DNA of 64,000 bases from Candidatus Micrarchaeota archaeon. Lineage in GTDB: Archaea > Micrarchaeota > Micrarchaeia > Norongarragalinales > Norongarragalinaceae. The notes under the pieces were generated by a model. That model was not told where the DNA came from, did not search any database, and saw only the letters and a list, made by a program, of their open reading frames with translations. Each line of letters starts with the position of its first letter. Position 1 is the first letter of the stretch. The stretch is from positions 116,609 to 180,608 of the forward strand of contig JACPGT010000013.1 of assembly GCA_016188965.1 (NCBI GenBank), written 5' to 3'. Shown here one piece after another: positions 24,701-42,206 of this stretch. Position numbers and translations under genes: made by a program.

Positions 24701-25769
24701 CGTTGAAAATCGCGATTCCTTCCTCGGGGAACGACTCGCCGGCCAGCTTCGCACCCACATACAGCCGCACCAAGGGCGAATAGACGGCGTTGCCCGCAGA
24801 ATCCTTGACCGTGACGCGCACGCCGGAGAACGCCGGCGGCAACGCCGAAAGCGCCACGGACACCGTCTCATCCGGCCGCGTCACGTTGACGTCTTCCGAC
24901 GCTTCGGAAAAACCTTCGGCCGACACCACGACCCGGACAGAACCGCCCAGAGGCACGTCCAACGCCGGCGCCGAGCCGTCTTCCGACGTTTCCGCCGTCC
25001 TCAACAAGGCATCGGCCTGAAAGACGCGGACCGACGCGTTGGCCACCGGACCGCCGCCGACTTTGGCCTCGACCACGCGCACGTGAAGACGCGCGTCCGT
25101 CGCCTGGTCTTTCTTCATCGGCACCAGCATGACGTACCGGTTCGACTCGCCGACCTGCACGCGCTGCTCGTCCGGCGTGAAGCCCTCCTGCTCGGCCTTC
25201 ACGACGTACTCGGAATTCTTGGGAACCGAAAACGAGAACGACGTCTGCTTCGCCACTTGATCGATGACCTTGCCGTCCGCATCCGACAGCGTCAGCGTCG
25301 GCGCGTCCGCCGCCTGCACGTCCACCACCAAGCTGACGCCTTGCGCTTCCTGGAGGCTGGCCGACACGCTTTTGCGCGACGTCTGGCCCGCCTTGACCGT
25401 CAGGTCGAAATTCGGCTCGGAAAACACGGCGGACGACGAGAAGACGTTGACGTTGACTTTGCCTGCCGGCACTTGGTCGAAAGACGCCTTGCCTGACGCG
25501 TCGGTCGACGCCGACGCTTTGAAGGACCCGGAATCCGTCAGCGTGACGGACACGCCCGGCAAAGGCTCGCCGGCGAAACTGGACGCCGAAACGACGACCG
25601 AACCCGTCGATGGGCCTTGGTTGAAAAACACAAACGCTATGCCCGCGATCAAAAGCAGGGCAATGACAAGCAAGGCGGCCGGCGGAATGCCTTTTTCCTG
25701 CAAGGCGTCTGCCCAGCTGCGGAAAGGCAAGCCCTGCTCGTCCGACCACTCGAAAAACGATTCAAACAC
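15720..25769 (-). CDS. Giant (3349 aa) membrane-anchored surface protein with many CarboxypepD_reg-like/Ig-like beta-sandwich repeats and a large non-repetitive C-terminal half
   Basis: GTG start. N-terminal ...ALQEKGIPPAALLVIALLLIAGIAFVFF anchor. Repeats of the type GVSVTLTDSGSFKASASTDASGKASFDQVPAGKVNVNV. TATA-like CCCTTTTTATTCC about 40 nt upstream. Confidence 0.85.
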   Translation of the reverse strand: MFESFFEWSDEQGLPFRSWADALQEKGIPPAALLVIALLLIAGIAFVFFNQGPSTGSVVVSASSFAGEPLPGVSVTLTDSGSFKASASTDASGKASFDQVPAGKVNVNVFSSSAVFSEPNFDLTVKAGQTSRKSVSASLQEAQGVSLVVDVQAADAPTLTLSDADGKVIDQVAKQTSFSFSVPKNSEYVVKAEQEGFTPDEQRVQVGESNRYVMLVPMKKDQATDARLHVRVVEAKVGGGPVANASVRVFQADALLRTAETSEDGSAPALDVPLGGSVRVVVSAEGFSEASEDVNVTRPDETVSVALSALPPAFSGVRVTVKDSAGNAVYSPLVRLYVGAKLAGESFPEEGIAIFNVSHSSSLAVSVYKAGFLPKYVPSIQKDQLVVLEDSDNQSTRVRVHVTDRRGTDASRVSVFLLDEKSKPLGLPVRLTGEDGVQVFDDVPLRVIQVVASDGVRSVSSGSVALDADSNETQVDLQFPPVSVGVKVSVVDHFSRNGLANAKVSWSNASCKTDSKGACSIAVLESEDAQFHVSADGYSSMDASPLPVYAGMPPLTFELTSSQVAQNVRLRFDGVFDVSGRKVHSLSPLSEYEARYAIVSPGVSFSKAEGEVALEGAAVLGGQGVGARVSKKGSAENRALPDVPPVDIGPDGFSQPSFEVTQGGSVWFVNQDNVTHFIVFDDGQSVTIPDGQNRSVVFNKVGGFSFKSMRNPELSGFVTVLAPAAVEVQEATGVLFEYGPFNGSRQFSLRFKTPSSGTVVLSHRSAFFTPVETLRSPAEGLTESARLSVSFSGTCTENVCVQWHFSYKGRKSSRLDLPWGQKASLVVNVFGLSSDGVLGVSSGTPAIVLLSGRSNSSVASLTPSAARIRADAGRSSAEFSFQAVRLSADAPLSINVSDGRSVLFETEAFVSVFSPGTPGLVVSVRPDRVEALSVSKLVFTVKDTLGQSVTGARVSVDDREAVESGNASGVYVVDEIEPDSLAPISFEVTKDGYRPFSGSIAVQPPEQAVDITPPALVISVDSKEPASASVQLSNRLADKLRASISVSLDAGGQITDVTLSTTSLSLAASGTASFDLKAAIKESVLEIAKKAGQLKEKVRGTVHVRVSGKGYSESFDVPFTVDAVFSQTAIDESWSVSPDALQFNLEPPKDKTQSVQMTVSNTGAYPMVFNVEQTLGLSIQPASLTLPPGSQDAFTIKAFLPREIDCFSEDLQKKGALTVYGSFQGLSSKKTASVNLDVSTASLACQPPNGYRLTLPVDVRMEFLANARSKSNPDGSTSVLLPTRELLWFGTGASVTPIDAQVPQGTAFVLDRRYVQALPEGGWTISFPLGVTLNLPSDADYQPFGASGQMLVTLDNAQIILPPGVQTPQAQGNARLSAAGVRVPPLQPVTFRRIPFNYDALQNLLPPDSVEIKLPTDAQFDLLPGTVERKNVQPKTPNAANSLSYLSKPQSDAHLQNLKAIQLPGGERLAFGDGAALDVQKGTLMLPSGTSLFVSRARVSAVKDLPIEEAFELRMPLSYALSVHGPSPKAFKTQDGRNALKLSDDAVVEASWTLSVSKQLSQNVLRVARDNALTYLKGAHARIPYDPASVAKCSFTYAPPDSVAFTLPTGTAVQKTAKGYEAILPACDDSARLVFSVSGGSGTAEVFHSPAVKKIVFSTDSEFTVGDASDAEEKSIRTSDAVELTACLKDAAGKDVADTLKEAKVSFAEKSVVSMPQRVLASFKENQADVDLGVLTPISFGSKSGSLTQLGSAKKITLHPNGQKIQAAMPPQYSGSGLLMPKGSSLSFLPVCEKGSGRLDVSITAEDVFAALDKDGKMGVLEITFSNKNPELFTQKKEICLFNSGKQSIILDAVTSEPAQAVSAEHKPIFQAIAGADSTDSKVPSERAYFSEPSAYGKRQRLAVEPSVEGQSNCRAFTLEFSLPPDVLWKDKCISASKVPPSMEGRYAFKFNDVNGEPVSESEKHRLPVKMIFDAKESDCQAYQDQKQFVDLNAVSVNYDTAELAGIAGGTGADKLYFKSAGHELFFAIVNNEEKPVRVKSISGAGAGLMTCTRVEGGSKTTFQLQTGAEIKPADVMLLSCVSNPGSQGKQGPYIIDFLGDSFNPTKTINVHVWNPGPSSSLYPYSPIGKAVPFFDPRTATPKQKGQMGLASYETLAFADAPSANAPPALTPSAAEAAAANPPEPEKSAAQKEAERKTEAQARTQAYQNLLDFRTCKKFFCTSGQAERAVYSFASTFRELVNQRINNNGQATELSGLSAFCQSLDSGKQFQKSTVLQLTEGALSGDDTLAQSLQWESQIKTQFFPEINQVVVQSSGSGRILFNGCGIYRLTARLDPACGIQGSSVSEWMGHMQVELNVEKLQECPVNLANAALLTADTPVSYAGNQLGTGSVIGAVKQVFSWNTLNAVGGLAQSAVNSGDKGKVAAMLESVGRLRQGVLGTYGSDANDKDALAVKMTYASAFGANAKDAKIKYCNKPGFEDKPCPAIPYENANFCWRTGGPVLTKLGLTVTGLALLQAIAAANPASVTATGGSSFLVGVRSFITNYRLITAASGCGAGAVAEYFQGRSVLSCRALEACTSSVLAGMVEMANPFFGGWKPLAAEAQLLRATSTTTLGSTLTGTAMRSAVGSFALQSIVGGATVAYLENLAGPDVTATPPVVPITLVLRQGLSPNKVYSGGVAARSYMINLMPGESYRKNIQAATSSFAAQGFFGAQGRRTTEQAVRAFYDAGNGKPENAFSNALFHGMALLSPDDKKAAAALIGSKDPAKVKQGYAMVSTNLIKENPVAARQFFVENLGLAGPASLQGDALTARLRSTFSALMQSPEFGPQTFEVLKGSTNKIPAGVLTRCSGNPAGCMAELDRLNYFQTAANQEYLLEQLTGEKSKFLIVTSEKGSGAKFLIHSSNAMRTNLMGEALEPLEKEAGVLLRTKLSLPDTAPDADVVTALGKRTAAQNKVLLDQLKKESRYLQLIQSADVGTGLAPAINDIVKTGKFPNAAGETGAAIVKRFEDGALSFTDLSDAFRRQGVEIGASFGGVASVTEVGANRLDSTGFLKGAKTPAQKAKALADLQLYDRDGKPAKLTPSLLADAEATLADQQAAARKLLNADGRARLARGASAFAAFLSAFLFNTDFRPVQIQVSADSSGSHVIAVHTEKGKPSAESICIKGASGLCESGNVISVSKLCGNSGTCFRLLQWPDGQSQAYGLVVGFNDDALVDPRFIGSIFLPEEAPLLPADLQLLKLPPGSSIDYAPLPAVGFKEYQPAAENPKVTARQVQIQAAQALIDQVNTDGFKNSLSDADRRSIIALANQAIAAFRAGKDAEGAAKLSAADQALTRLLSKGQTGGSKP

Positions 25770-26974: not shown

Positions 26975-29932
26975 TTACCCATAGCATTGGTTAGTTGCGG
27001 TGCTAGGAAAGCCAGTGCATAGAGCGTATTTACCTAAACTGCCGCACTGCGACTGGGGCACGTAGTAGTCGCCCGACATACAACTGCATTTTATTATGGG
27101 TTGTACGCTGCAGCCCCTTCTGTTAGTACAGTCAGAAGTTGAGATGCTGCTGCAGGCCAAACCTTGAAATGCCGAATCCGAATAGGCAACCGCGCAACAA
27201 GTCAACCCCGCTTGGCAGACGAAGTTGCCGTTGCCTTGGAAGTTTTTCGTCTGATAACACTGGCTGTTGGCCAAACACCTTCCGTTGGTCCTGGTCGGCG
27301 TCAGACTACAGGGAGAACCTTCGCCAACAGTAGTTGGTCCGGAGCCTACGCGAGGGGGTTGAACTCCAGGCGGGGCGCCCTGGGGGAGGGGGGGCGAAGA
27401 GACAACACAACACTGAATATTGGAAGCTGAATACTGCGTGCAAGTTCCACCTTGGCTTGACGAATACGAAGTACCACCTTTCTGCGTACAGGCATTAGTA
27501 GTTATACATGTCCCTTTCTTTCCGCCGGCAGTACAGGCCTGACCCGGAGCGGGATCTTTTCGTGGTTCACCACCGCCGGAGGATTGGGGCCCTCCGCTTG
27601 GAGCACCGCCACCGCTGCTGCGAGGGGCGTCCCCGGAATCTACGCGTTCAGGTGTTCGAACGGGTTCCGACTCGACTTGCTTGAATTCTTCCAAGCCCTT
27701 GACGTCGAACGGCTTGGCGGGCTTCGCGCCCAAGTCCTTCAAAGTCGTTTGGTCCAGCGGGGTGGAGCAATACACTTTTTCAGGCGTGGTCGAGGCGGGG
27801 CTAGTGTCGGCAGCCGGCTGGGTTTGACTCGTCGGCGTGCGGGTGAACCATTGGTGGACGAATACCTTCACGGCGACGGCTTGTCCGAAACCGACGTTGA
27901 ACGCCTTCACTACAGGGTTGGAAACCGCGTCGGAACTCGTGAATTTATAATAGTTGAATCCGGAAGCCGTCGTCGCTGTCTTGAGCGCAGTCGGTGACTG
28001 GAGGCCGTTGACAGGCACGCCGGAAACCGACTCTGCCGTCGAAGGCGGGCCGTCGTTGTCGACGAAAAACAATCCGGCTGCGACTGGCTCGCCGTAGTCG
28101 ATGGAAGAATACGGCGCAGAATATACCCGCCCCCAGATATCGTCGCCATTGGCCCGGGTCGCCGGCAAATCACCATTCGTCGGGTTCCTATCGGGTTTGG
28201 CCGGCTTTTCTTCTTTCTTCCTTTCGGCGGCAGGCACCTTGCCTTTCATGCCAGCGACTTTGATTTTAAGGTCTTTTTCCAAGTCCAACGAGAGGGGAGT
28301 CTCGGCCTTCAACGCGGCTTGTAGGGCTTTGTAAATAGGGCTATCGGGCTCAACTTCGTTGCACGCTTTGTCTTTGTCCGTCGCGCCAAAATTCTTCTTG
28401 CCCTCACCGGCATTGACGCAATACTTGCTCCATAACGCCCCGGGCCAAGCGGGCACCCAATCGTCGAAGTTGGCGGGTTTGCCGCCTTCTTTGAGTTGGA
28501 CGGACTGCAACGAAATGCTGAAGAACACGGCGGGCGCCGGTTGGGCCCCTGAAGCTGGAGCTGAACTGGCGGCACTTGACGCCGTGCCGGTTGCAGCCGG
28601 AGGCGTGCTGACCGGGGCGTTTTTCAGCTGGATGGTGAAATCGATTTTGCCGCCTTTGCCGTCAAAAGAACCGGGTTTGACGTTGACTTTGACCGCACTG
28701 ATGCACGTCAAGTCCAAGCCTTGGCGCTCGGCCTGTTGCCTGAGTTCGTGGCCTAGTTGCTTCGCGTCCGTCAACACGCGGGACGGCGAGGCCTGTGCGG
28801 GGTGGCCGCCGGTGGCGGTTGGCGTAGTGCCGTCACAAATCGCGGAGGCTTGTTTGTCGCCGGTTTGGGTCAGTTTGCATTTTTTGAGTAATTCGGTTGA
28901 ATCGCGGCCTTCGTCGAGGACGTACGCCAGCAATTCTTGGGTGTATTTCTGTTGTTCTTCGCAAGACGCGGGCCGCGTGGAACCCGCAGAAGATGACGCG
29001 TCACTCGATATGGTCGGTCCGCTTTGGCAGTAGGTTTGCGCGGATAGCGTGGTTCCGGATAATTTCAGCAAGGAAAACGAAGCGGATGAATCCGGGTACG
29101 ACGCGTCGATCGTCACGCCGTCTTTGGGCGGCAACCCGTTTTCGACTGGGATATATTTGCCTTTGACTTGCGCTTCGATGTATTCCTTGAAGGGTTTTTC
29201 TTCCGCTTCCGGATTGGCAAACCCGACGGGCCACTTGTTCAAGTTGTACAGCGTCATGCCGGAAGTCGAGACGGCGGAAGGCGACGAAGACGAGGACTGC
29301 ATTTGGGTGGTGCCAACAACCGGGGTGAAGGCCTGAACAACAGAGGAGGGGGGTCGTGCAGCCACCGCTGCGGGTCGAATTCCCCCTGAACCGGGATCCG
29401 AAACAGAATCGGGAGCGGGTTCGGCTGGAGGGCGGGAACCGGAGGAGCCGGTTGGTCCAGAAGCGACGGCAGTACCCGGAGAACCACCCGCGCGTTTGGC
29501 GGCTAACCACGTTTTGAATCCGGCGATATCTTCGGTGCCAATAGTTATCAGAGCGGTTAGTAAATCGGGGTCGGCTTTCAACGTCTTAAAGCAATCCGCT
29601 CCAGAAAATTGATAATTACGGCTGAGGCGACCATAAACCGCCGTGTTGTCAGCAAATATTTTCTTTTGGGTAGACCCAGGAAAAACTTCTACGGGCGCTT
29701 GTTCTTGCGCGTACTCGCGGTCGCAAATATTGTTTTGTACGGGTAATCGAAAAGCATTTCCGGAGTCATAGTCCACGTTGGCACCAAAATCGAAAGAGGC
29801 AGTACCCGTTTCAAAATTTAGCGTATTTCCGACGACCAACCCGGTCATGACGCGGTCGGGTCCGGCGGCAAATAAGGCCGCGGCGACGAGGGCGGCGAAG
29901 GCGACGGCGGCGATGAAGTTTTGGGAAGACAT
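26975..29932 (-). CDS. Secreted 985-aa protein with Ser/Thr/Pro-rich linkers and a Cys-rich C-terminal module
   Basis: Signal peptide MSSQNFIAAVAFAALVAAALFAAGP. More than 30 Cys in the last ~200 aa (CTAGGKKGTCITTNACTQKGG...CSVQPIIKCSCMSGDYYVPQSQCGSLGKYALC). Confidence 0.75.
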   Translation of the reverse strand: MSSQNFIAAVAFAALVAAALFAAGPDRVMTGLVVGNTLNFETGTASFDFGANVDYDSGNAFRLPVQNNICDREYAQEQAPVEVFPGSTQKKIFADNTAVYGRLSRNYQFSGADCFKTLKADPDLLTALITIGTEDIAGFKTWLAAKRAGGSPGTAVASGPTGSSGSRPPAEPAPDSVSDPGSGGIRPAAVAARPPSSVVQAFTPVVGTTQMQSSSSSPSAVSTSGMTLYNLNKWPVGFANPEAEEKPFKEYIEAQVKGKYIPVENGLPPKDGVTIDASYPDSSASFSLLKLSGTTLSAQTYCQSGPTISSDASSSAGSTRPASCEEQQKYTQELLAYVLDEGRDSTELLKKCKLTQTGDKQASAICDGTTPTATGGHPAQASPSRVLTDAKQLGHELRQQAERQGLDLTCISAVKVNVKPGSFDGKGGKIDFTIQLKNAPVSTPPAATGTASSAASSAPASGAQPAPAVFFSISLQSVQLKEGGKPANFDDWVPAWPGALWSKYCVNAGEGKKNFGATDKDKACNEVEPDSPIYKALQAALKAETPLSLDLEKDLKIKVAGMKGKVPAAERKKEEKPAKPDRNPTNGDLPATRANGDDIWGRVYSAPYSSIDYGEPVAAGLFFVDNDGPPSTAESVSGVPVNGLQSPTALKTATTASGFNYYKFTSSDAVSNPVVKAFNVGFGQAVAVKVFVHQWFTRTPTSQTQPAADTSPASTTPEKVYCSTPLDQTTLKDLGAKPAKPFDVKGLEEFKQVESEPVRTPERVDSGDAPRSSGGGAPSGGPQSSGGGEPRKDPAPGQACTAGGKKGTCITTNACTQKGGTSYSSSQGGTCTQYSASNIQCCVVSSPPLPQGAPPGVQPPRVGSGPTTVGEGSPCSLTPTRTNGRCLANSQCYQTKNFQGNGNFVCQAGLTCCAVAYSDSAFQGLACSSISTSDCTNRRGCSVQPIIKCSCMSGDYYVPQSQCGSLGKYALCTGFPSTATNQCYG

Positions 29933-29942
29933 GACAAACGGC

Positions 29943-32900
29943 CTAACTCGATGAAGCTATGCATCGGCAAATTACCTTGCCGTCACTACCAGGAGTCTTC
30001 CCAGGAGGCGTTAGTAAATCCAAATTGGGACCGCATTTTCCGTTTCCGGATTGGCTGCGGTCGGACGCCATACTGCACGTGAACGACATATCGGCCTTCT
30101 GTCCGCGGCATCCTCCAATAGACTCGCTGCTGCACGTGGAATCGTCTCTTGTCGCTTTGGGGGCATGTGACAATTCTTGGGCCTGAGTGCTGACGGGCGC
30201 GTTGCTTTGGGTGGTGGTCGCGCCTTTGGGCACCCAGTTTTGGATTTCGTATTTCTTGCCGTCGGCGGAGAGTTTGAGGTAGGGAAATCCGCGGTACTCT
30301 TCCTTCAAAGTCTGCGAGCCTTTCGGCCGGTTGGCGGATGGCGCGTCGGATGCTTGCGTCCAGAGGCGCGGGTCGTATTGGGCAGGGGTGGAGGACATGC
30401 GGTCGAAGCGTTCGAATTCGACGTTGTCGCCCGTCTGGCTTGCGCCGGTCAAGTCGGCTTTGATTTGGTAGACTTTGATGCCGCCGGAGTTTCCGGCTTC
30501 TTTGACGGGCAGGGCGATGACGGGTTGCAAGTCGGCGATGACGGGTTTGCGGTTGGAGTAGACGCCGCGGCTGTAGCCGTACCATTGCTGTTGTTGCTGC
30601 ATGAACGGGTTGAAGTATCCGGTGTTCAGTTGGCCTTGGTATTGGAAGGCGTTGAGGATGTCCGAGTGGCAGCCGGCTTGTTGCCATCCTTGTCCGAAGG
30701 CGTCGCCGAAGCTTTGCTGGATGGTCGGGTCGTTCACGTAGCCTGGGTAGTAGCCTTGGCCTGGGTAGAAGTTGGACTGGTACGGGTTGTAAGGCACTTG
30801 TCCGCCGCCGAGCGCGGGGTTGACGGCCGCGCCGCCGCTGATTCCGCCACCGTAAGGATTGGCGCCGCCGTAGGGGCTGCCGTAGGGGTTGTAGCCGCCG
30901 CTGAATCCTTGCTGGTCGTAGTATCCCGGCGTGTTCTGGTTGTAGCCGTAGATGGGCGCGATGCCGCTCTGTTGGCATTGTTGGCGCGTCTGGGCCAAGG
31001 GATCCTGTCCTTGCCGGATGCAGGCTTCGTATTGTGAACGCAGGGCCATGTATTCGCGCAAGGCGTCCTGCATGGCTTGCTGGTATAAGCGTTGGTACGC
31101 CTGTCCGTCGCCGCCGTTGAGCCCGAGGGGGTCTTCGTAGGCCAGCGTGTCGACGGAGGCGAGGTATTGGACGGCAAAAGCGTTCAGCGCGGTCTTGACG
31201 GTTTCAAGATAAGCCGTGGCTTGTTCCGGCGTGCAGTAGTTGGCGCCGGAGCATGAATACGCGCCTTCGCTTGCGCCGACGTTGCCGACGATGTCGTATT
31301 GGTCAAGTCCGACGGGTGCGGGCTGGATCGTCACTTGCAGGGGCAATTCGGTGGCGGTCGTGGCCGTGGCGCCGGATTTCAAGGTGAGTTTGTCGTCTTT
31401 CTTGAGCGTCAGCGTGGTGGCGCGGGCGTCGGTGCCGGCTACGACGAAGTTGGTCAGGCCGGCGCCGTTGAGGATGAACTGGACTTGTTTGGATTGGATG
31501 TTGTTGGCAAAAACGGCGGGTTCCTCGAAGCTTAATCCGGTTTTTCCACGCAGGGTGATGGCGCCGGAGGGCATGGCGATGAAGGCCAAGTGATCCGCTT
31601 GGCTTTGCGCGGTTTGGACGGCGAAGTGGACGATGTAGTCGCGGGCGTCGAGGTTGACGCCGGTGCCGAATGGCTTGAGTTTGACTTGGAAGCCGTCTTT
31701 TCCTTTGCCGATGGGTTCGACCTTGATTTGGCCGTCTTGTCCCGCGGTGTATTGGACGCATTGGGCGCGGGGACGGAAGGTCACGACGAAGGTGCGCGTC
31801 TGGCGGGTGAGGAGGCCGACTTGGGACTGCAGGTTCTGTTTGATGTCGGTGAAGATGTCGTTGACGCCGGAGAACTTGCCGACTTCCTGGATTTCGTAGC
31901 AGGGATTGTTGTACTGCGTCAGGATGTCGACGGTGTTGAACAGCTGGTTCTCGACGCTGAAGGCCAAGGCGTTGTACGGCACGATGGGGAAGATGGGCTT
32001 GGTGCAGGAAATGCCGCTGGCGGACGGCGTGCATCCGTCGCCGGCTTTCTTGAGCGCCACGCCGCGTTGCGTCGCCGTCAGTTGGGTGGGTGCTGACGCG
32101 GCGGTGACTTGCTGGGGATAGTTGCCCAGCGTTTGGGCGCCGAGGTAGTAGCCGAGGTATTTGGAGAAGATGTTCTGGAAGTTGAAGTTAGGCGCTTGGC
32201 AGACTTGCGACACGGGGATGCAGCATTGCTGGCCTTCCGCGCATACGGCGGCGGTGGCGGAGGGAGTAGGCGTGGGCGTGCCGTAGGGGTTGGGTGGATT
32301 TTCCGAGAAGTAGGGCGGAAGCCCCGTGTTGTACGGCGATGGGCCGTATGGGTAGCCGGGGACGTTGGAGTATGGCGTGTAGCCGGTGGGCCACGTGGGC
32401 GAGGATGGCTGGTACGTGGACGGGATGAAGCCGTTGGGACAGGATTGGCCCAGCGCGACGCATTGGCCGCCGCGGGCGGCGCAGTCCGCACCGGGTACGG
32501 GCGTGGGCGAAGGCGAGGCGTTGCCCGGCTGGGGCGAAACGGTTGGCGTGGGGCTGGCAGACACGCCGCATTGTGAGGATAGGACGGCAATCGAGCTGCC
32601 GAGTGCTTGTCCGTTGACGGTTTCGGCGTTGAACGCCAGGAAGCATTCCCCGTCCGTCGTGGGCGTGAGGAGGATCCGGGTGTCTTTTCCGGGCTTGACG
32701 CGGAAGTTGGCGGACGACGAGCCGGACGCGCCGTGTACCGGCGGGGTAGTCGTGGCCGTGGTGCTCAAGACGCGCATGGAGGCACAGGCCGTTCCGGCGA
32801 ACGAGGCGGCGACTTTCAGTTCGGCGTTGACGCGCGAGGACACGGTCAGGGTGGTGGGGTTCTTGCAGTCGAGTTCGACGTTGGAAATGTCGGAGCCAAA

Positions 32901-35900
32901 TTCGAGCGGTTCGGTGGCGTTGGCCGCGACTTGGGCTTCTCCTTCCTGGAATCCGTCACGCGAGGCGACGACGGCGAACAGGCCGGGCGCGTGGGGCCGA
33001 AGTTTCTTGAACTTGTAGATGCCGTCTTGCCCGTTGTCCTTGGAGCCGTCGCCTTGGAGGGTGATGGGCTCGTTGGGGAATCCGTCAAAAGGCGAGCCCT
33101 GCGTTTCCTTCAAGGTGAGGCGGGCGTCGGTGACGGGAACGTTGCGGTCGGACTTGACGTCGACCGTCAGCGTGTTATCCTGTAGCGTTTCGATGGCCGT
33201 CGGTGAGGGCACGATGACGAACGTGCCGGTGCCTTGGACGACGACGAAGCGGTTCACGTCGAGGATGGCGCCGGGCGTGTCGGAAAACGCAAGATTGAAG
33301 CGGGAACTGGCCGTCGGCAGCAGTGCTTTGGCAAAGAGGGTGCCGTTGGTGCGTTGGAAGAACGACAAGGGGATGCTGACGGTGGTGGAAGCAGGGCTGA
33401 CGGGCGTGAGCGTGCCGAAGTCGTAGCCGGTGATTTGGACGGACGGGCTGGTCGTGATGCTCAAGCGGGGCGCGTCAAGGGCTTCGAAGGCGCGCAAATC
33501 GATGGAGACGTTGAACGTCGAGCCAGCGTCTACGCGGAGGCCGTTGGCCGCGCTGGCCGTGGCCGAGTAGAAGCGGGTGGAGAGGCAGGCGCGGTCGTTG
33601 CAGTCGCTCTTGCCGTCGATGACGGGCAGCTTGATGGTGACGGTCTGCGCATAGCAGGAATCCAAATCGGCGGTCTTTTCTAGGCCTCCGAAGCGGGGGT
33701 CTTCCGGCTTGCGGAGGTTGATTTCGCCGGCCTGGGCATAGAGGCGGTAGTGCAGCACGACTTCGTCGCGGGGCTTCGCGTCGGGCTTGACGAATACGTC
33801 AGCGGCCACGGTGCCGGCGCCGAATTGCGAGGAATACGTCCAGTCGATCCATTGGATGGGGCCGTTCTGGTCGCCCAAGTCGTCGGTGCAGGACGGGCCG
33901 GGGTTGAAGCGGCCGCCCTTGACGATTTCGGCAGCCGAGGGTTGGGAATAGTCGCCGAACGTCGCAATGGATTGTGCCGCGTCGGCCTGCGTGCCGACGC
34001 GGAGGAACACGCCGGCTTTGCGGGCGTTGGACGGCAGGTTGAACGAGACGGCGAAGGAGTAGATGCGGCCCTTGTCCAGCGCCGTGACGTTGCGGCCATT
34101 CTCGTCCAGGACGGCGTAACTCAACACGGTCAACTGGTTGGCCAGCGACGAGGGCAGCAGGTAGAGTGACTTGTGCATGGTGGCGCTAGGCTCGACGGAG
34201 AATTCCTCGGACGACAGTCCGACGTAGCCGGAGGCGTTGGCGTACAGCACGAGGTTGCGGTTCGCCGGTACTTGGATGGAGCAGGCCGTGCCGTTGCTCT
34301 GGCACGTGCCGACGACGCGGTTGGTCGACGAGAGGGCCGCGGTGAACGTGGCGGACATGGCCGAGCGGTTCGCCGCGTCGAATGCTTTGGCCGAGACGAA
34401 CGCCGTGGCCGGTTGCAGCATGATGCGCATCGATTTGGGTTCCAGGCCGATTTCGACGATGTCGCTTTGTCCGCTTTGGGCGCCGTACACCGCGGTGGCC
34501 TTGACGCGCTTGAGCGGCAGGTTTCCAAAGACGGTGGCGCCGTCCAGTTCCGTGTCTTGAGCCGGCAGGCCCAGGGGGAATCCATCATGCGTCTGCAGGG
34601 TGACGGTCGCGCCGGAGACGGCCGCGCCGGTGTCATCGATAACGGAGACGTTCAGAGAACCGTGGTTGCCCACCAGCACGCGGTCCAGCACTTGTTGCGT
34701 GAATTCGCCGCCCGTCAGCACGCGCGTGGTGGCCGGCAAGTAGCCTTCGGCCCATACCGTGGCGTATACGCGGGCCGACGGCGCGATGTCGAAACTGACT
34801 TTGCCGTCGTCATCGGTAAGCGTCATGTCGGACACGGCGCGCAAGGCCGCTCCTGACAGGTAGAGCCGCACTTGGGCGCCTGGAATCGGGGATTTAGCCG
34901 AGTCGACGGCTTGGAGGGAGACTTTCGAAAAGTCCGTTCCGCCGCCGGTGGTCGTCTTTTTGGGCAGTTGGACGAAGAAGTCGGTGTCCGACGCGGTGAC
35001 TTTCGAGTCGAACGTGTGCAAGCTGAAATCGTTGCTGTCCGGGTCGAACGTGGCGTAGACTTCGACGCCCAGCGGGACGTTGTCGAAACGCGCCACGCCT
35101 TGGGAATCCGTCGCCGAAGAATCCAGAGTTTCGGCGTTGTCGTTGCGGTACAGCGTCACGAGGCCGGACAGGCCGTTGCCCTGCAGGTCCAGTACTTCGA
35201 CGCGCACCGTCGCCGAACCGGGTTGGACGGATGGATTGGGAGTGACCGTTCCGCCGCCTCCGCCTCCAGAGGAGTATAGCGTGACGGAGCAGGAAGAGCT
35301 GCTCGTAAGGCAGGACTGCGTCGTGCTTTCGTAGCCGTCATGTGAGACGGCCAGCGTCACGGCCGGGGAAGAAGGCGGCACGGAAAGCGTGACGCGTCCT
35401 TGGGCGTCGGTCTGTCGGGTGACGAATTCGCCGGTCAACGGGTCCTGGAAACGCACTTCGGCGTTGCTCAAGGGGAATTGGTTGTCGTCGTTGACGAAGA
35501 GCACCAACGAGCCGGACCCGCCGGCGGAACCGCCCGCGGCCTCCAACGAGATGGAAAACGTGGCCGACGACTTGCCGGACGGCAAGGGGAATTCTTTGGA
35601 GAAGGCGTTGTATCCAGCAGCCGCGTCGATGCGGATGGTAATCTTCTTGGAGTAGGGCACTGATTCGAAGTTGGCCACGCCATTTTTCGTCTTGGCGGAC
35701 AACTCGTCGTCGCCGGAGGAAAGCCTGACCAGGATGCTTTCAAGGTTGACAGAATCCGGCCCCGTGACCTTGACGGCCACGTTGACGGCGCCGGAATTGC
35801 CAAGCGGCGGAAAACCGCCACCCAGGACGGACATGGCGGCGAACGCGCCAATGCCGAGGATGAGCAGGACTCCGAGGAAGAAGAAAGGCATGGAAGGCAT

Positions 35901-36020
35901 GCCGCGGTCTTCGAGGGGATTGATGAACCATTCATAGACCTTGATGCCGGAATTCTCAAGGCCGTCCATGAAGCGGTAATACGTGTCTTCCAACGATTGG
36001 TATAACTCGTTCAAGCCCAT
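29943..36020 (-). CDS. Giant (about 2025 aa) membrane-anchored surface protein with Ig-like/CarboxypepD_reg-like repeats, a Q/N/Y/G-rich low-complexity segment and a Cys-containing C-terminus
   Basis: Start taken at MGLNELYQSLEDTYYRFMDGLENSGIKVYEWFINPLEDRGMPSMPFFFLGVLLILGIG (ATG 36020), because of the TATA box TTTATATAAG at 36049-36058 and homology to the 1804-aa N-terminus. The ORF-tracker extension to 36284 is probably untranslated. Confidence 0.8.
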   Translation of the reverse strand: MGLNELYQSLEDTYYRFMDGLENSGIKVYEWFINPLEDRGMPSMPFFFLGVLLILGIGAFAAMSVLGGGFPPLGNSGAVNVAVKVTGPDSVNLESILVRLSSGDDELSAKTKNGVANFESVPYSKKITIRIDAAAGYNAFSKEFPLPSGKSSATFSISLEAAGGSAGGSGSLVLFVNDDNQFPLSNAEVRFQDPLTGEFVTRQTDAQGRVTLSVPPSSPAVTLAVSHDGYESTTQSCLTSSSSCSVTLYSSGGGGGGTVTPNPSVQPGSATVRVEVLDLQGNGLSGLVTLYRNDNAETLDSSATDSQGVARFDNVPLGVEVYATFDPDSNDFSLHTFDSKVTASDTDFFVQLPKKTTTGGGTDFSKVSLQAVDSAKSPIPGAQVRLYLSGAALRAVSDMTLTDDDGKVSFDIAPSARVYATVWAEGYLPATTRVLTGGEFTQQVLDRVLVGNHGSLNVSVIDDTGAAVSGATVTLQTHDGFPLGLPAQDTELDGATVFGNLPLKRVKATAVYGAQSGQSDIVEIGLEPKSMRIMLQPATAFVSAKAFDAANRSAMSATFTAALSSTNRVVGTCQSNGTACSIQVPANRNLVLYANASGYVGLSSEEFSVEPSATMHKSLYLLPSSLANQLTVLSYAVLDENGRNVTALDKGRIYSFAVSFNLPSNARKAGVFLRVGTQADAAQSIATFGDYSQPSAAEIVKGGRFNPGPSCTDDLGDQNGPIQWIDWTYSSQFGAGTVAADVFVKPDAKPRDEVVLHYRLYAQAGEINLRKPEDPRFGGLEKTADLDSCYAQTVTIKLPVIDGKSDCNDRACLSTRFYSATASAANGLRVDAGSTFNVSIDLRAFEALDAPRLSITTSPSVQITGYDFGTLTPVSPASTTVSIPLSFFQRTNGTLFAKALLPTASSRFNLAFSDTPGAILDVNRFVVVQGTGTFVIVPSPTAIETLQDNTLTVDVKSDRNVPVTDARLTLKETQGSPFDGFPNEPITLQGDGSKDNGQDGIYKFKKLRPHAPGLFAVVASRDGFQEGEAQVAANATEPLEFGSDISNVELDCKNPTTLTVSSRVNAELKVAASFAGTACASMRVLSTTATTTPPVHGASGSSSANFRVKPGKDTRILLTPTTDGECFLAFNAETVNGQALGSSIAVLSSQCGVSASPTPTVSPQPGNASPSPTPVPGADCAARGGQCVALGQSCPNGFIPSTYQPSSPTWPTGYTPYSNVPGYPYGPSPYNTGLPPYFSENPPNPYGTPTPTPSATAAVCAEGQQCCIPVSQVCQAPNFNFQNIFSKYLGYYLGAQTLGNYPQQVTAASAPTQLTATQRGVALKKAGDGCTPSASGISCTKPIFPIVPYNALAFSVENQLFNTVDILTQYNNPCYEIQEVGKFSGVNDIFTDIKQNLQSQVGLLTRQTRTFVVTFRPRAQCVQYTAGQDGQIKVEPIGKGKDGFQVKLKPFGTGVNLDARDYIVHFAVQTAQSQADHLAFIAMPSGAITLRGKTGLSFEEPAVFANNIQSKQVQFILNGAGLTNFVVAGTDARATTLTLKKDDKLTLKSGATATTATELPLQVTIQPAPVGLDQYDIVGNVGASEGAYSCSGANYCTPEQATAYLETVKTALNAFAVQYLASVDTLAYEDPLGLNGGDGQAYQRLYQQAMQDALREYMALRSQYEACIRQGQDPLAQTRQQCQQSGIAPIYGYNQNTPGYYDQQGFSGGYNPYGSPYGGANPYGGGISGGAAVNPALGGGQVPYNPYQSNFYPGQGYYPGYVNDPTIQQSFGDAFGQGWQQAGCHSDILNAFQYQGQLNTGYFNPFMQQQQQWYGYSRGVYSNRKPVIADLQPVIALPVKEAGNSGGIKVYQIKADLTGASQTGDNVEFERFDRMSSTPAQYDPRLWTQASDAPSANRPKGSQTLKEEYRGFPYLKLSADGKKYEIQNWVPKGATTTQSNAPVSTQAQELSHAPKATRDDSTCSSESIGGCRGQKADMSFTCSMASDRSQSGNGKCGPNLDLLTPPGKTPGSDGKVICRCIASSS

Positions 36021-39700: not shown

Positions 39701-42206
39701 CGGCCTCGACTTTTCCGGTGGCGGGGTTGTAGTGGATGTTCACGGACGTCGTAAAGGTGCCTGCCGTGGGCAGGACGGTGGGCGTGGCGGGTCCGGGCGT
39801 GGGCGTCGGCGTGCCCTGGAGCGTGCCGCTGATGCCGCGCACGAGGGGTATCTTGTATTCGTACGTGCGGGGGTAGCAAAGCGCGGCCTGCGCGTCGGGC
39901 GGATCACGGGCGGAAAGCAGGCCGCTGTTCGTCTGCGTGGCGAAGTAGAGGGACAATGGCTGGTTGGAGCGGGCGTCGGGTTTGATTTGGAGCAGGAAGG
40001 TGGCGATGCGGACGGCGGGTTGGTTGAAGCGGAGTTCGACCCATTTGTAGCCGTCGGAGTTGGACACCAAATGGGAAGCAAGGTCCTGGCAGTTGGCCGA
40101 AGGGTTGTACGTAGAGCTGCGCAGGACGGCATCCGCGCCGGTGTATTCGGCGATGTAGGCGTCGTCGGACTCCATGTCCGCTTTGCTTCCGACGCGCAGG
40201 TAGATGCTCTGGTTCGTGGCCGACGCCGCGGGCGTGGCGTTCAGTTCGACGACGTATTGCTGGCCGGTCTTAAGCTGGCTGACGCGCTGACCGGACAAAT
40301 CGCGGATCTGTACGAGCCCGACTTGGGCGCCTTGCGTCGCGCTTTGGGGGATGAGTACCGCGGGCAATACGCGGTTTTCGCCGTCCAAAAGCACGAGGTC
40401 GGCCACGAAGGGGACATGTTCGGCTTTGGTCAGGATGACGTGCGTCTGGACCTGGGCGGGAACGTCGGAAAAGCGGGAGGAGCCGTTGGTGTCGGTGGTG
40501 GCGTCGGCAAAGGCCTGGCCTTGGCTGTCCACGTGTACGGAGACGGACGCAAGTGCCGCATTGTCCAGAGCGGAGACGGCGCTGACGCGCAAGGCGGCGC
40601 GGTGGATGGTCAACTGCAGCCGCAGACGGCTTCCGCCTTGTTCGATGCTGACGCGGGCCGTCGCGTTCTGTCCGGCATGCTCGGCCAGCACGTCGTAGGC
40701 CGAGAGGGAAAGCTCGCTAAAGACGGCCGAGCCGGAAAAGTCCGTGGATTGGGCAGGGGAGGCCAAGCGGCCGTTCTGGAAGAGCGTGACGCGGGCACCG
40801 GAGAGCGCGGCGCCGTACTCGTCCTGTACGGCGACGGTGAGGGCGGCCGAGTTGAAGGCCGTGGCCTTTTCCAAGGTGAAGACGTTGTCTTTGCCGGCCT
40901 GCAAGTCGGCCGTCTTGGACAGGTAGCCGTCGGAGTCAAGATAGACGTAGTACGCGCCGGGCTGCACCTGCAGTTCCCAACGCTCGCCTTCATACGTGGC
41001 CAGTTCGATCAAGGGAGCTTTGATGATGCGCGCAGAGAACGGAAGCGGGTTGCCTTGCACGTCCTGGGCGCGGATGACGGTGTCCAATGCGTTGCCACCA
41101 CCGGAGCCGCCGGACGCGTCCAGCGTGATGAGGATTTGGGTGTCTTCCGTCACGGTCTGGGGGCGCGACGAGCCGTCGTAGAGGGGAAAGTTGGCGACTT
41201 GCGCGGTGACGAACACGCTGGAGCCCATTTCGGCGGAAAACGCGGCTGCACCGGCAACGGTGTCGCTTTCACCCAAGAGCGTGCCGCCCGCGCCATAGAG
41301 ACGGACGTGGCCTTCCAAAGGCCCAGCGCTGGAAGACAGTTGGATGGTGACTGCGCCGAACGTGGCCAGCTGGGTCGAATTGCCGTCGCCGCCGCCCGCG
41401 CCGTTGCCGCCGGAACCGGAGCCGTCGCCCGAACCCCCCGAGCCGACGTCACCGCCGCCGAAGAAGGACCCGCTTAAGGACTTCAGAAAGACCGTGGTCT
41501 GTCCGCCGTCGCGCACGGCCAGCGTCTCGGTCTTGTAACCTTCCTTGCTGACGCGGATGTTCGTCAAAGCCGCTTTGGGCAAAACCGCGCGCCCTTGTTC
41601 GTCCGTGGCCTTCGTTCCGCTGCCGTCCTCCGACACGTACAACACTTGGGCCGCCGTCACGGGTTGTTCCGACCCGGCATCCAGCACCACGACGGTCAGC
41701 ACGTTGTAGTCGACGGAGCCGGGATCCGGCAGGTCCTCCGTGCCCGGCGGCGTGGACTTCAGATCGGCTTTAAGCGTGCTTTGCCCCGCGCTGGCCTTGA
41801 GCGTCAACGTCTTGAAGCCGGACTTGCTGACGCGCACCGTCAAGGCGGAGCCAGGCAGGCCGTCGAACGTGATTTTTCCTGCCTTCGTCTTGCCTTGGGC
41901 GATGATGGAGTCTTGGAAGAGGATTTGCACGTCGGCGCCGTCCACGGCCTGCCCCGCGGACTGGACCGTGATGGAAAGACTACGCGTGCCGCCGTCGGCC
42001 TGCGACGTCAACAGCACAAGCGCGCCGCCGACAAGGGCCACGAAGAGGAGGATAAAGACGGGAAGCGACGGGATGCCGCGGGCCTCGATGGGCGTGACGA
42101 AGAAATCCATGAAGGGCACGCCGGCGGTCTGTAGGCCTTCGGCAAAGCCGTAGTACGCCTCCTCGATGGAATCGTAGACGGCCTTGAGGGAATCGAAAAT
42201 ACCCAT
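36792..42206 (-). CDS. Giant (1804 aa) membrane-anchored surface protein with beta-sandwich repeats and an Ala/Gln-rich coiled-coil-like C-terminal region
   Basis: N-terminus MGIFDSLKAVYDSIEEAYYGFAEGLQTAGVPFMDFFVTPIEARGIPSLPVFILLFVALVGGALVLL. TATA-like TTTTTATCC at 42228-42236 (reverse), ~25 nt upstream. Confidence 0.8.
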   Translation of the reverse strand: MGIFDSLKAVYDSIEEAYYGFAEGLQTAGVPFMDFFVTPIEARGIPSLPVFILLFVALVGGALVLLTSQADGGTRSLSITVQSAGQAVDGADVQILFQDSIIAQGKTKAGKITFDGLPGSALTVRVSKSGFKTLTLKASAGQSTLKADLKSTPPGTEDLPDPGSVDYNVLTVVVLDAGSEQPVTAAQVLYVSEDGSGTKATDEQGRAVLPKAALTNIRVSKEGYKTETLAVRDGGQTTVFLKSLSGSFFGGGDVGSGGSGDGSGSGGNGAGGGDGNSTQLATFGAVTIQLSSSAGPLEGHVRLYGAGGTLLGESDTVAGAAAFSAEMGSSVFVTAQVANFPLYDGSSRPQTVTEDTQILITLDASGGSGGGNALDTVIRAQDVQGNPLPFSARIIKAPLIELATYEGERWELQVQPGAYYVYLDSDGYLSKTADLQAGKDNVFTLEKATAFNSAALTVAVQDEYGAALSGARVTLFQNGRLASPAQSTDFSGSAVFSELSLSAYDVLAEHAGQNATARVSIEQGGSRLRLQLTIHRAALRVSAVSALDNAALASVSVHVDSQGQAFADATTDTNGSSRFSDVPAQVQTHVILTKAEHVPFVADLVLLDGENRVLPAVLIPQSATQGAQVGLVQIRDLSGQRVSQLKTGQQYVVELNATPAASATNQSIYLRVGSKADMESDDAYIAEYTGADAVLRSSTYNPSANCQDLASHLVSNSDGYKWVELRFNQPAVRIATFLLQIKPDARSNQPLSLYFATQTNSGLLSARDPPDAQAALCYPRTYEYKIPLVRGISGTLQGTPTPTPGPATPTVLPTAGTFTTSVNIHYNPATGKVEADATEITLQVDPIYPRDSVPLRITDEPSCAIETRIEATHSGCYQLGRTSLAFEAKDYRPDCPASVKANEVILPQGDANLILAAICAPNSQIKLPIRINAQSATSINTAPATLDEGEKTAKLLYVINQKQAGTRTLTPLGASGSIAVAAQGAAAFSWSGPGTLTLLDGDAQVGQWTYNNAPAYFDGIGTMGPRVETASDYLSCAQGWCSGQAALQALRHFQTAAKNTAVATMFRRGQDTALPSAQPTPVPTAIPSITPTPSASASPSATASVTPTPSATARATAFITPTPTPSATSTPTPTPSASADSTPVTLHVNDVKTAANGNQIKLTEILQASGTTYAGFDIRSPAGTVLTAISKQQGEFYEGNGLRFQVTAITWSDSESQRSVQVQLLGSWTALPAASADSDGVAASFENRPDSVAPSFGSSLSFATTPPITREPFVFSTVMQLTEGADKAFDILGVQRVGAGCGGLPGVYHVTASSLDGNTFTYSAQAMKLEQSFDGRGQGLLLCGFLHAAGNQVVTGKNPALPSQNQASEEHTKPDTKLAIFTLAPVYKQQCEALGNQVVTLQKKIAAEKADLKQAGTALQAAVTQLQSGVNVAIAAEAASKGAKSSSVTNSKVPAYTCTEGVCVPCAKMGCAPGYDGAIAPNGQAVTADGAARLNLFNAKTALSEAIAQTNLPEETSTTALPSPAASSPGPATAAAQKLEAEFTIDIGAVETSRQSALKALQAANPPATDAGSAAAVAAAAESSGLASAAQTKTAAALALAKTAAQAVTQTRLAYDKDVQQLAATKQKCNAMRPPLFEIPFGLWPQQSQFACPTSDRYEAEAAKLEAEKLATQKALDVASEYGADFGADLDKQIADAKALAAKGCVALCKPKPACVESFPSGRQFTQVIHLGLSSDCQPFSKTAAQDLAKSMVANTVMKSLGPYAMMASFATGGSCNGAQGYFSKDNLGGPGSLSGGPSGGYIG

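Follow-up and report, generated by a model that had tools for sequence, protein, structure and literature searches.

A conserved N-terminal segment on giant surface proteins of Micrarchaeota and Iainarchaeota, apparently an undescribed anchoring or sorting domain

Three giant surface proteins with a common N-terminus

The window analyzed here, a stretch of 64,000 nucleotides from a Candidatus Micrarchaeota archaeon (contig JACPGT010000013.1), encodes three giant surface proteins, A, B and C, along with protein D and a YdjM-family membrane protein (Table 1). A, B and C together account for 21.5 kb of a genome that is likely ~1 Mb in size (estimate), and the giant genes are found near an S-layer gene. 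The CarboxypepD_reg, Big_1, Ig-like and PEGA domains of such proteins suggest that their bodies are extracellular, and for ultra-small symbiotic archaea these giants probably serve as the principal contact surface.

An orthologue of C (43% identity) is encoded in the Micrarchaeota MAG JACQQD010000008.1, orthologues of B are found in seven related loci (L004, L009, L011, L013-16), and gene D is kept downstream of B in relatives. Tandem, co-oriented carrier genes, two or three each, are present in 14 loci including the window. An A-type gene follows a B-type gene in L009 (after a D-like gene), L017, L025, L028 and L029, an order kept across distant lineages.

Table 1. Genes, N-terminal modules and membrane helices in the window (positions are those of the window).
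Feature	Position	Strand	Content or evidence
Gene C, 1804 aa	36792..42206	-	Module, membrane helix, CarboxypepD_reg-type beta-sandwich repeats, Cys-containing C-terminal end
C module, residues 1-49, MGIFDSLKAVYDSIEEAYYGFAEGLQTAGVPFMDFFVTPIEARGIPSLP	42060..42206	-	Translation; 84.9 bits; AlphaFold2 helices 3-27, 32-42
C membrane helix, residues 50-66, VFILLFVALVGGALVLL	42009..42059	-	Sole hydrophobic segment; maximal 19-residue mean 2.88; AlphaFold2 helix 47-67
YdjM-family (PF04307) polytopic membrane protein, 142 aa	36232..36660	+	Pfam 40.5 bits against a cut-off of 29; candidate partner
Gene B, 2025 aa from ATG	29943..36020	-	Module, membrane helix, CarboxypepD_reg, Big_1, Ig-like, Cys-rich C-terminal tip
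B module, residues 1-45, MGLNELYQSLEDTYYRFMDGLENSGIKVYEWFINPLEDRGMPSMP	35886..36020	-	Translation; 93.4 bits
B membrane helix, residues 46-66, FFFLGVLLILGIGAFAAMSVL	35823..35885	-	Sole hydrophobic segment, hydropathy scan
Gene D, 985 aa, between B and A	26975..29932	-	Ordinary hydrophobic N-terminus, without module, Cys-rich C-terminus
Gene A, 3349 aa	15720..25769	-	Short module, membrane helix, CarboxypepD_reg and PEGA-like repeats
A-type short module, residues 1-30, GTG start, MFESFFEWSDEQGLPFRSWADALQEKGIPP	25680..25769	-	Translation; 29.2 / 18.8 bits
A membrane helix, residues 31-49, AALLVIALLLIAGIAFVFF	25623..25679	-	Hydropathy scan; maximal mean 3.05

An acidic, aromatic-rich segment of 30-49 residues opens all three giant proteins, and the only membrane helix of each comes next. 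A preliminary description of this DNA had recognized a conserved N-terminal module here, placed directly before a hydrophobic segment; the three ORFs do begin with the sequences it quoted, and a hydropathy scan identifies that segment as the sole one of its kind in each protein (a second peak in A, at residues 2502-2520, is marginal at 1.62). Smith-Waterman alignment of the pre-membrane segments of B and C scores 118, far beyond shuffled controls (19.5±3.9, n=5000, none as high), while A aligns with B and with C at 33 each (p ~0.005). Against an HMM built from database homologues only, with the window sequences left out, B scores 93.4, C 84.9 and A 29.2 bits, and A still reaches 18.8 bits once the A-type subfamily is also dropped. 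The next-best of 868 six-frame ORFs scores 2.3 bits, and no further window ORF was found to carry the module.

By its sequence, A is a shortened, divergent member of the family. Its N-terminus, MFESFFEWSDEQGLPFRSWADALQEKGIPP, aligns with the ..W(E/Q)SFLDWSDE(K/Q)GLP...LEEKG(I/V)PSLP signature of the A-type subfamily (P0088, P0119, P0133, P0148), an alignment in which about two thirds of the module is retained rather than the distal half described earlier. The interval formerly assigned to it, 25634-25769, includes ~15 residues of the membrane helix, and the module itself covers 25680-25769. The GTG start of A is confirmed by the orthologue in L009 (12023..), which has ATG at that codon, and an in-frame stop lies 7 codons upstream. 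The ATG start of B matches those of homologues such as P0002, which begins MGLSEFYHGLEDAYYNF.

A family confined to giant proteins

A profile of the three N-termini was run in an exhaustive HMMER search of 1.84 billion representative protein clusters, returning 557 clusters at E<=1e-3, 116 of them at E<=1e-10. Among the best 150 of the 557, which were inspected, the match lies inside the first 40 residues in 149, and 94 of these 149 proteins are at least 1000 aa long. The short matches sampled are partial or sit on contigs of 1.1-10.4 kb (10 of 10, one without a contig on record). Complete carriers span 1,346-3,689 aa without exception among the matches inspected, as do all 22 complete carriers in related loci, gathered with a tight 8-sequence alignment (1,346-2,929 aa). 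Among the matches inspected the module is thus restricted to giant proteins, bearing out the expected enrichment in large surface proteins. Taxon names, available for 17 clusters only, are Micrarchaeota, Norongarragalinales and Diapherotrites/Iainarchaeum, all DPANN archaea, and the source names of carriers include thrombospondin type 3 repeat. Because the same segment heads hundreds of giant proteins in two groups of tiny symbiotic archaea, it represents a real domain. The top-scoring match, P0001, was rejected as a false positive: this 840-aa protein contains 12 internal repeats, each resembling profile positions 5-28. Word-indexed homologue searches with the three N-termini, residues 1-600 of C or a 127-sequence alignment came back nearly empty; low-complexity or transmembrane words appear to have swamped their candidate lists.

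The N-termini have no Pfam or NCBIfam match at E<=10, which includes YSIRK (PF04650) and KxYKxGKxW (TIGR03715), and ESPR (PF13018) is matched neither by them at that threshold nor by the full proteins. The unrelatedness to ESPR proposed earlier therefore stands. Neither sequence nor fold similarity to the module was found among PDB chains. It is not mentioned in the literature on DPANN giant proteins or the Micrarchaeota S-layer, and the core string GIPSFP is absent from the literature searched. The module is a candidate new Pfam or NCBIfam family and, with 557 clusters, a short specific tag that retrieves carriers from metagenomes even though their bodies are unalignable.

AlphaFold2 modeling on 127 sequences (pLDDT 96.6, pTM 0.75) predicts two helices followed by the membrane helix. 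The first element (..Y..[IL]ED.YY.F.D.L..) is a long, amphipathic helix with many acidic and aromatic (Tyr, Phe) residues; the second consists of a G-[ILV]-P turn and a short helix, [VI]Y.[WF]F..P[IL]E; and the third is a cap-and-turn, E-x-x-G-[IV]-P-S-[FLM]-P, running straight into a membrane helix of ~20 residues with GG at its middle. Past the helix follow 1.3-3.7 thousand residues of beta-sandwich repeats and Cys-rich tips. The cap-and-turn forms the family core, and near-invariant positions are E37 (99%), P42 (99%), S43 (93%), [FLM]44 (99%), P45 (97%), Y15 (93%) and E11 (93%).

Sequence pairs are on average 46% identical over the module, against 29% over the membrane helix and 22% over the following 150 aa, a contrast inflated by the choice of matches on module similarity. 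The shared N-terminus might simply be left over from the ancestry of fast-diverging paralogous surface proteins, with no special function, and the carriers are indeed paralogues or orthologues with similar first beta-sandwich domains. This reading is very improbable: conservation of the module is about double that of the neighboring ectodomain, the bodies are no longer alignable (by BLASTP, B and C align only across their first ~230 residues), several positions are 93-99% invariant in at least two DPANN phyla, and the alignment-based fold prediction is of very high confidence.

The preliminary description had stressed an invariant [RK]-G before the helix. Across the family this is the least conserved part of the junction, with R/K in 66% and G in 89% of sequences. 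The pair resembles archaeal class III signals (PibD/FlaK), which likewise place a charged residue and Gly before an N-terminal helix and serve archaeal surface structures. On a type IV pilin-like reading, prepilin peptidase would cut after [KR]-G, which directly precedes the helix in A, B and C and in roughly two thirds of family members, and the helix would drive fibre assembly. We consider this reading close to untenable. None of 152 sequences has the FlaFind-type pattern [KRDE][GA][ALIFQMVED][ILMVTAS]{3} at the junction, and the 23 pattern matches inspected fall further downstream (listed examples at residues 79-96, beyond the helix). Pro occupies +2 in 99%, N stands in place of G in 9%, and 34% lack R/K. 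The leader, at 30-76 residues, is folded and acidic rather than short and basic, and the cargo is 1.3-3.7 thousand residues, not a small pilin. Tat, lipobox, YSIRK and KxYKxGKxW readings were dropped on motif and profile tests (of 152 sequences, none has an RR motif and one has a lipobox Cys following the hydrophobic segment).

The membrane helix as a proposed anchor or possible signal peptide

The 19-residue hydropathy mean of the membrane helix is 2.5-3.05 across A, B and C, and the uncharged stretch has a median length of 22 residues (146 sequences). Long enough to span the membrane and the single N-terminal segment of its kind, the helix agrees in length and number with an uncleaved type II (N-in) Sec signal anchor. 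Its hydrophobicity appears more typical of a transmembrane anchor than of signal peptides like the Ala-rich ones on the neighboring S-layer and D proteins. No C-terminal transmembrane segment or sorting signal was found in the 21 complete carriers inspected, whose C-termini are soluble and mostly Cys-rich. An archaeosortase-family enzyme cannot act on these C-termini, since they lack a helix, and a role as archaeosortase or exosortase substrates was dropped for the want of a C-terminal hydrophobic segment in the same 21 carriers.

The reading we favor, with about an even chance of being right, is that giant surface proteins of Micrarchaeota and Iainarchaeota are held by an uncleaved N-in/C-out signal anchor whose cytoplasmic end is the module, a folded cap that would fix topology and retention and may offer docking. 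We infer the cytoplasmic placement, which the preliminary description took as given, only from the extracellular character of the remaining protein; absence of cleavage, roles in topology and retention, and any docking are likewise deduced. Where a targeting or sorting signal had been proposed, the module could equally be a structural cap, a retention element or an assembly handle of an uncleaved anchor.

Charge offers little guidance. The module is net acidic in 90% of sequences (mean -3.3), and by the positive-inside rule alone an acidic N-tail is translocated as easily as retained, which counts against the anchor reading. K/R residues within 15 residues of the helix average 1.05 on the N flank and 0.81 on the C flank; these barely differ, and orientation would have to come from something else, such as a folded N-domain. 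In the mechanism we propose, the membrane helix would engage the Sec translocon co-translationally, by which time the N-terminal hairpin would be out of the ribosome and folded. Being folded already, the hairpin could not cross the membrane, and this would fix the N-in orientation despite almost no positive-inside signal. It would then remain as a cap at the inner membrane face, where it would hold in place the one helix that anchors a very long surface protein under force, and might offer a common docking surface. Candidate partners there are the co-encoded paralogues, or a membrane protein of which the YdjM-family product encoded next door is an example. The tandem carrier arrays lend some weight to the idea of a shared handle. 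To our knowledge, archaea lack SecA; a dedicated N-terminal cap, possibly with a partner gene, would provide an inroad to how they insert, orient and hold an ectodomain of 2,000-3,700 residues on one helix.

The module might instead be the long structured n-region of an extended signal peptide that is cleaved off. It would slow or control the targeting and translocation of very large cargo, and signal peptidase would then cut away module and hydrophobic segment together, freeing the giant protein into the S-layer space. The closest precedent is ESPR, found on proteobacterial autotransporters and two-partner-secretion proteins, which is likewise a conserved extension before an export segment and, like the module, present only on very large exported proteins. 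The likeness is a functional analogy only, as the sequences are unmatched. ESPR is ~25 residues long, basic/hydrophobic, Gram-negative and lost with its cleavable signal peptide, whereas the module is ~45 residues long, acidic, aromatic-rich, archaeal and predicted to form a helical hairpin, before a helix that looks like a permanent anchor. Small residues past the helix give C a plausible signal-peptidase site (LLTSQA|DGG), G- or S-rich stretches occur there family-wide, and the S-layer gene close by makes non-covalent attachment conceivable. Conservation past the helix is poor, however, the hydrophobic segment seems longer and more hydrophobic than the neighbors' signal peptides, and no C-terminal anchor, lipobox or sortase signal would keep a cut protein on the cell. 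We regard cleavage as unlikely, while giving it appreciable weight.

Two known anchoring systems resemble the uncleaved anchor. Giant RTX adhesins (LapA, MpIBP) stay attached through a small N-terminal domain that folds on the cell side, while the rest of the repetitive adhesin is outside. As in the module, a cell-side fold holds a giant protein; unlike it, the RTX retention module is bacterial and is not known to have a membrane helix. Once type I secretion is over it blocks a TolC-like pore in the outer membrane, from which a dedicated protease frees it. Archaeal S-layer stalks (Sulfolobales SlaB, Staphylothermus tetrabrachion) are also long, carry one membrane helix and are encoded near or with the S-layer protein. 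Their anchors are C-terminal and are not known to have a conserved cytoplasmic domain, whereas the window proteins carry an N-terminal anchor with a conserved cap and are several times larger. A stalk-type anchor has been proposed for the Micrarchaeota S-layer (bioRxiv 10.1101/2021.04.28.441871).

A YdjM-family neighbor and possible processing

The preliminary description suggested looking for a co-occurring processing or secretion component, and one candidate emerged: the YdjM-family gene, head-to-head with gene B in the window with starts 212 bp apart. The pairing recurs: 17 loci, the window among them, have a YdjM-family gene and a carrier gene head-to-head, and in 14 of these the distance between the two starts is 57-212 bp. 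As a partner of the module, as opposed to the giant proteins in general, the YdjM-family product is a candidate. Conserved His/Asp motifs in the protein stand beside K/R-rich loops (PDVDHQKTR, KPRHRGVTHH), which our reading of the sequence would place in the cytoplasm, on the same side as the module. The protein is a putative metal-dependent hydrolase.

These features raise an alternative to the uncleaved anchor, in which the module is a handle for dedicated N-terminal sorting or processing and a membrane enzyme, the YdjM-family protein being the prime candidate, acts at E-x-x-G-I-P-S-F-P on the cytoplasmic face through cleavage, modification or hand-over to surface assembly. The near-invariance of E37 and P-S-[FLM]-P exceeds what a structural turn usually needs, so that the junction, where conservation peaks for the family at 93-99%, could be a recognition or processing site. 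The head-to-head pairing extends to diverged loci (L012 and L017 score only 65-79 bits), and the His/Asp motifs of the YdjM-family protein adjoin the presumed cytoplasmic loops. Against this, roughly every second locus with upstream sequence lacks a YdjM gene nearby, we know of no catalytic activity for the family, and the two genes may be neighbors because YdjM is co-regulated with the giant proteins, not because it acts on the module. Helix 1 is likewise closed by G-I-P (G25, [ILV]26, P27), which suggests a repeated structural cap or turn, not a cleavage site. A processing handle therefore seems decidedly doubtful to us.

A more specific version, to which we assign a similarly slim chance, casts the module and the E-x-x-G-I-P-S-F-P junction as the substrate tag of an N-terminal sorting system of Micrarchaeota and Iainarchaeota, in which the YdjM-family protein would recognize the acidic hairpin at the inner face of the membrane. 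The co-encoded giant paralogues would then be processed by it, or built by it into a heteromeric organelle for host contact. PEP-CTERM and PGF-CTERM signals (exosortase/archaeosortase) likewise combine a short Pro-containing motif with a single membrane helix, though they sit at the C-terminus, have a basic tail and expose the motif on the outer face. If true, the sorting reading would supply a first function for the widespread YdjM/DUF457 family and would define a counterpart to archaeosortase sorting at the opposite protein end.

No sortase homologue is present among the called genes of the window. Upstream of the carrier arrays in one lineage only lie an archaeosortase-family gene (TIGR04178, 32.8 bits) and a gene for a 418-aa partner.

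A conserved N-terminal segment on giant archaeal proteins

The translated N-termini of A, B and C, the three minus-strand giant proteins of the window, bear out the sequences quoted in the preliminary description. The 30-49 residues ahead of their sole membrane helix (the module) align better than shuffled controls: the B and C segments score 118, against 19.5±3.9 for shuffles, 0 of 5000 of which reach 118, while the A-B and A-C pairs each score 33 (p≈0.005). An HMM built from database homologues alone gives B 93.4, C 84.9 and A 29.2 bits; with the A-type subfamily left out, A still scores 18.8 bits, and the next of 868 six-frame ORFs scores 2.3. This subfamily includes A and the database proteins P0088, P0119, P0133 and P0148; in it the YY pair is replaced by W/F, and P-P-[AL] often stands in place of P-S-[FL]. 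The start codon of A is a GTG seven codons past a stop. The A orthologue of the related metagenome locus L009 has an ATG at this codon (sequence MFESFFDWADEQGLPFRSWADGLQEKGIPP); the short A module is therefore genuine. The shared module was thus confirmed overall, with corrections to its motif and reading.

An exhaustive HMMER search of 1.84 billion representatives, using a three-sequence profile of the A, B and C N-termini, matched 557 proteins at E≤1e-3 and 116 at E≤1e-10. In the best 150 of the 557, the match falls inside the first 40 residues in 149 and inside the first 10 in 118; their median length is 1670 aa, and 94 have at least 1000 aa. The sole exception among these 150 is the best-scoring match itself, P0001, a false positive: an 840-aa protein in which a unit of about 68 aa is repeated 12 times in tandem, each copy with VIGAVYDSIEDHYNIVSV, mimicking module helix 1. 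Of ten shorter matches that were checked, the five that have a source name all bear the flag 'partial'; four of the rest come from contigs of 1.3-6.4 kb, and for the last the record lists no contig. Every complete ORF of a module-bearing protein (carrier) from 36 metagenome loci and locus L004 (22/22) measures 1,346-2,929 aa. The suspected enrichment in large proteins therefore holds, since the complete carriers all have at least 1,346 aa and the short matches examined are mostly partial or from small contigs. The family is large and unannotated, and among the matches inspected it occurs on giant proteins only.

Carrier sources are Candidatus Micrarchaeota, Candidatus Norongarragalinales / Norongarragalina meridionalis, Candidatus Diapherotrites / Iainarchaeum and 'archaeon', and none of the 17 named clusters has a bacterial or CPR name. 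Their annotations are limited to hypothetical, carboxypeptidase regulatory-like and thrombospondin type 3 repeat. The module is absent from Pfam, NCBIfam and the PDB: with the A, B and C N-termini as queries, Pfam-A and NCBIfam gave nothing at a limit as loose as E≤10, and the best match of the module profile to PDB sequences had an E of only 0.42. A literature search found no paper describing the module.

BLASTP aligns B and C only over their first ~230 residues, best across the module. For 109 carriers, identity averaged over pairs falls from 46% across the module to 29% across the membrane helix and 22% across the 150 residues beyond it, a contrast inflated by the selection of the matches on the module. 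Neutral ancestry of the shared N-terminus, third by weight among the alternatives considered, is very improbable.

Module anatomy and membrane topology

Conserved module columns (152 sequences)
Position	Residue and frequency
7	Y 87%
11	E 93%
12	D/E 87%
14	Y 85%, remainder W/F
15	Y 93%
17	F 66%
19	D/E 98%
21	L 82%
25	G 77%
26	I/L/V 93%
27	P 66%
29	Y 76%
35	P 80%
37	E 99%
39	R/K 66%
40	G 89%, N 9%
41	I/V 89%
42	P 99%
43	S 93%
44	F/L/M 99%
45	P 97%

The [RK]-G pair, originally described as invariant before the hydrophobic core, is not. By the column frequencies it is the more variable part of the junction, and the strictly kept part is E-x-x-G-[IV]-P-S-[FLM]-P. Both helices of the module close with the motif [LI]-E-x-x-G-[ILV]-P, likely a repeated helix cap and turn. 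The membrane helix that follows is Leu/Ile/Val-rich, with G at position 56 in 51% and at 57 in 67%. AlphaFold2 (127-sequence alignment; pLDDT 96.6, pTM 0.75) predicts helices at 3-27, 32-42 and 47-67; a Foldseek search of the PDB with this predicted structure returned zero matches.

Each giant protein of the window has one strong hydrophobic segment (19-residue hydropathy 2.5-3.05), and across the family the median length of the uncharged stretch is 22 residues. Inspection of 21 complete carriers revealed neither a hydrophobic segment nor a sorting signal, of archaeosortase type or other, at the C-terminus; most of these proteins end in a Cys-rich region. The bodies of the giant proteins match CarboxypepD_reg, Big_1, Ig-like and PEGA (Pfam), domains of extracellular type. 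The single segment, its uncharged length, the lack of a C-terminal anchor and the nature of these domains argue for an N-in/C-out topology with the N-terminal helix as sole anchor. Flanking charges do not help to decide topology: K/R near the helix average 1.05 on the N side vs 0.81 on the C side, and the net charge of the module is negative in 90% of cases, with a mean of -3.3.

The initial proposal of a targeting or sorting signal stands only in part: the module is a real, conserved N-terminal unit on giant proteins, but it resembles none of the known signals tried. A Tat motif was found in 0/152 sequences and a lipobox in 1/152, and the ESPR, YSIRK and KxYKxGKxW profiles gave no match. A class III signal, the last alternative by weight, is highly implausible; the prepilin-type pattern occurs at the junction in 0/152 sequences, with Pro at +2. 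The S-layer protein and D, the product of the gene between B and A, have ordinary Ala-rich signal sequences, and the module is therefore not the organism's general export signal.

In bacteria, giant surface proteins are already known to carry a conserved N-terminal extension (ESPR), and a cleaved, ESPR-like extended signal is the weightiest alternative, though unlikely; the archaeal module is unrelated to ESPR in sequence, predicted structure, charge and probable fate. Best supported is an uncleaved N-terminal signal anchor in which the module would form a conserved folded cytoplasmic cap ahead of the helix. What the analysis shows is the module's anatomy, distribution and context. We infer that this cap would leave the ribosome before the membrane helix and, once folded, would retain the N-terminus on the inside, a task that no charge bias performs. 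It could afterwards secure the single helix that holds the very long ectodomain. The excess of conserved aromatic/acidic surface and the mid-helix GG suggest that the cap also packs against something, which may be the face of the membrane, paralogues encoded alongside it or a partner protein.

Genomic neighborhood of the carriers

Features of the window and of related metagenome loci
Feature	Locus	Coordinates	Strand	Remarks
Gene A	window	15720-25769	-	3349 aa giant protein
Gene D	window	26975-29932	-	985 aa; N-terminus ordinary hydrophobic, C-terminus Cys-rich
Gene B	window	29943-36020	-	2025 aa giant protein
Gene C	window	36792-42206	-	1804 aa giant protein
YdjM-family gene	window	36232-36660	+	head-to-head with B, starts 212 bp apart
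YdjM-family gene	L004	7538-7963		head-to-head with carrier gene
S-layer protein gene	window	45006-47843	-	S_layer_C (PF05124)
S-layer gene	L004	15871-18822
S-layer gene	L006	4411-5907
D gene	L009	9152-11902
D gene	L011	14554-16182
D gene	L013/L014	from 15892
Exosortase/archaeosortase gene and 406-418-aa partner	L026	7393-9361		equivalents in L025, L027, L028, L030, L032, L033
tRNA	window	50954-51067	+	114 nt; Rfam, 57.7 bits
AbiEii toxin and AbiEi antitoxin pair	window	3243-4720	-	AbiEii: PF08843, 107 bits

The gene context of the giant array is archaeal; the window also encodes an FKBP26-type isomerase, pyrG and guaA. The closest named relative, the groundwater 'Candidatus Micrarchaeota' MAG JACQQD010000008.1, has a C orthologue (43% identical), a B orthologue and an S-layer gene. 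Carrier genes form co-oriented tandem arrays, of three in the window, L025 and L028 and of two in eleven more loci. Close relatives (L009-L011, L013-L016) keep the order C, B, D, and distant lineages (L025, L028, also L017 and L029) have two B-like genes followed by an A-type gene. D, which has no Pfam match, is conserved directly downstream of the B-type gene and probably belongs to the same operon and surface assembly as the giant genes.

An S-layer gene lies a few kb from the giant array in the window and two relatives. According to a published suggestion, the Micrarchaeota S-layer might require a separate membrane-anchored stalk protein (bioRxiv 10.1101/2021.04.28.441871), which makes the giant anchored proteins candidate stalks.

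Clustering of neighbor genes brought out a membrane protein, 141-146 aa in most loci, of the YdjM family (PF04307; 40.5, 49.5 and 34.1 bits vs a cut-off of 29). Its gene is head-to-head with a carrier gene in 17 loci (the window, L004 and 15 others), and at 14 of these loci the starts are 57-212 bp apart; the arrangement persists for the diverged copies of L012 and L017. Its conserved His/Asp motifs flank K/R-rich loops that are presumably cytoplasmic. We know of no function for the family; that the pairing is conserved suggests a function connected with the giant surface proteins. The gene is missing from about half of the loci with upstream sequence, and in L006, L021 and L024 arginyl-tRNA synthetase is the upstream neighbor instead. 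A reading of the module as the tag by which a dedicated processing or sorting enzyme, for example this protein, recognizes its substrates ranks second among the alternatives and is decidedly unlikely.

Upstream of the array, only the L025-L033 lineage has an exosortase/archaeosortase-family gene (TIGR04178, 32.8 bits vs a cut-off of 23) together with a 418-aa gene, and carriers show no C-terminal signal to match. The two genes overlap just upstream of the YdjM gene and giant array; the 406-418-aa partner has an N-terminal hydrophobic segment.

Other features of the loci

The D-A interval (25770-26974) spans 1.2 kb with no convincing gene; GC is 0.54 in the 26-28 kb bin vs 0.60-0.65 across most of the giant genes, and only about 120 bp separate D from the A-type gene in L009. 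The gap may be what is left of an insertion, or it may be regulatory. Downstream of A, two large minus-strand ORFs (927 and 577 aa, within 10357-14937) have no Pfam match and no hydrophobic N-terminus.

Between the C-like and B-like genes of L013, L014 and L016, two orphan ORFs of 100 and 112 aa (at about 3860-4160 and 8040-8380) match only the final ~80 residues of C. Among them stand genes for an AAA_14/DUF4143 ATPase and AbiEii-like proteins, which have window homologues at 1950-3086 and 3243-4040. Integrated elements may have copied the 3' end of gene C here, or the ORFs could serve as spare cassettes for the C-terminus. In the window, the ATPase gene adjoins the AbiEii/AbiEi pair, a type IV toxin-antitoxin or abortive-infection module in a DPANN genome. 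The tRNA, missed by ARAGORN in bacterial mode, probably contains an intron.
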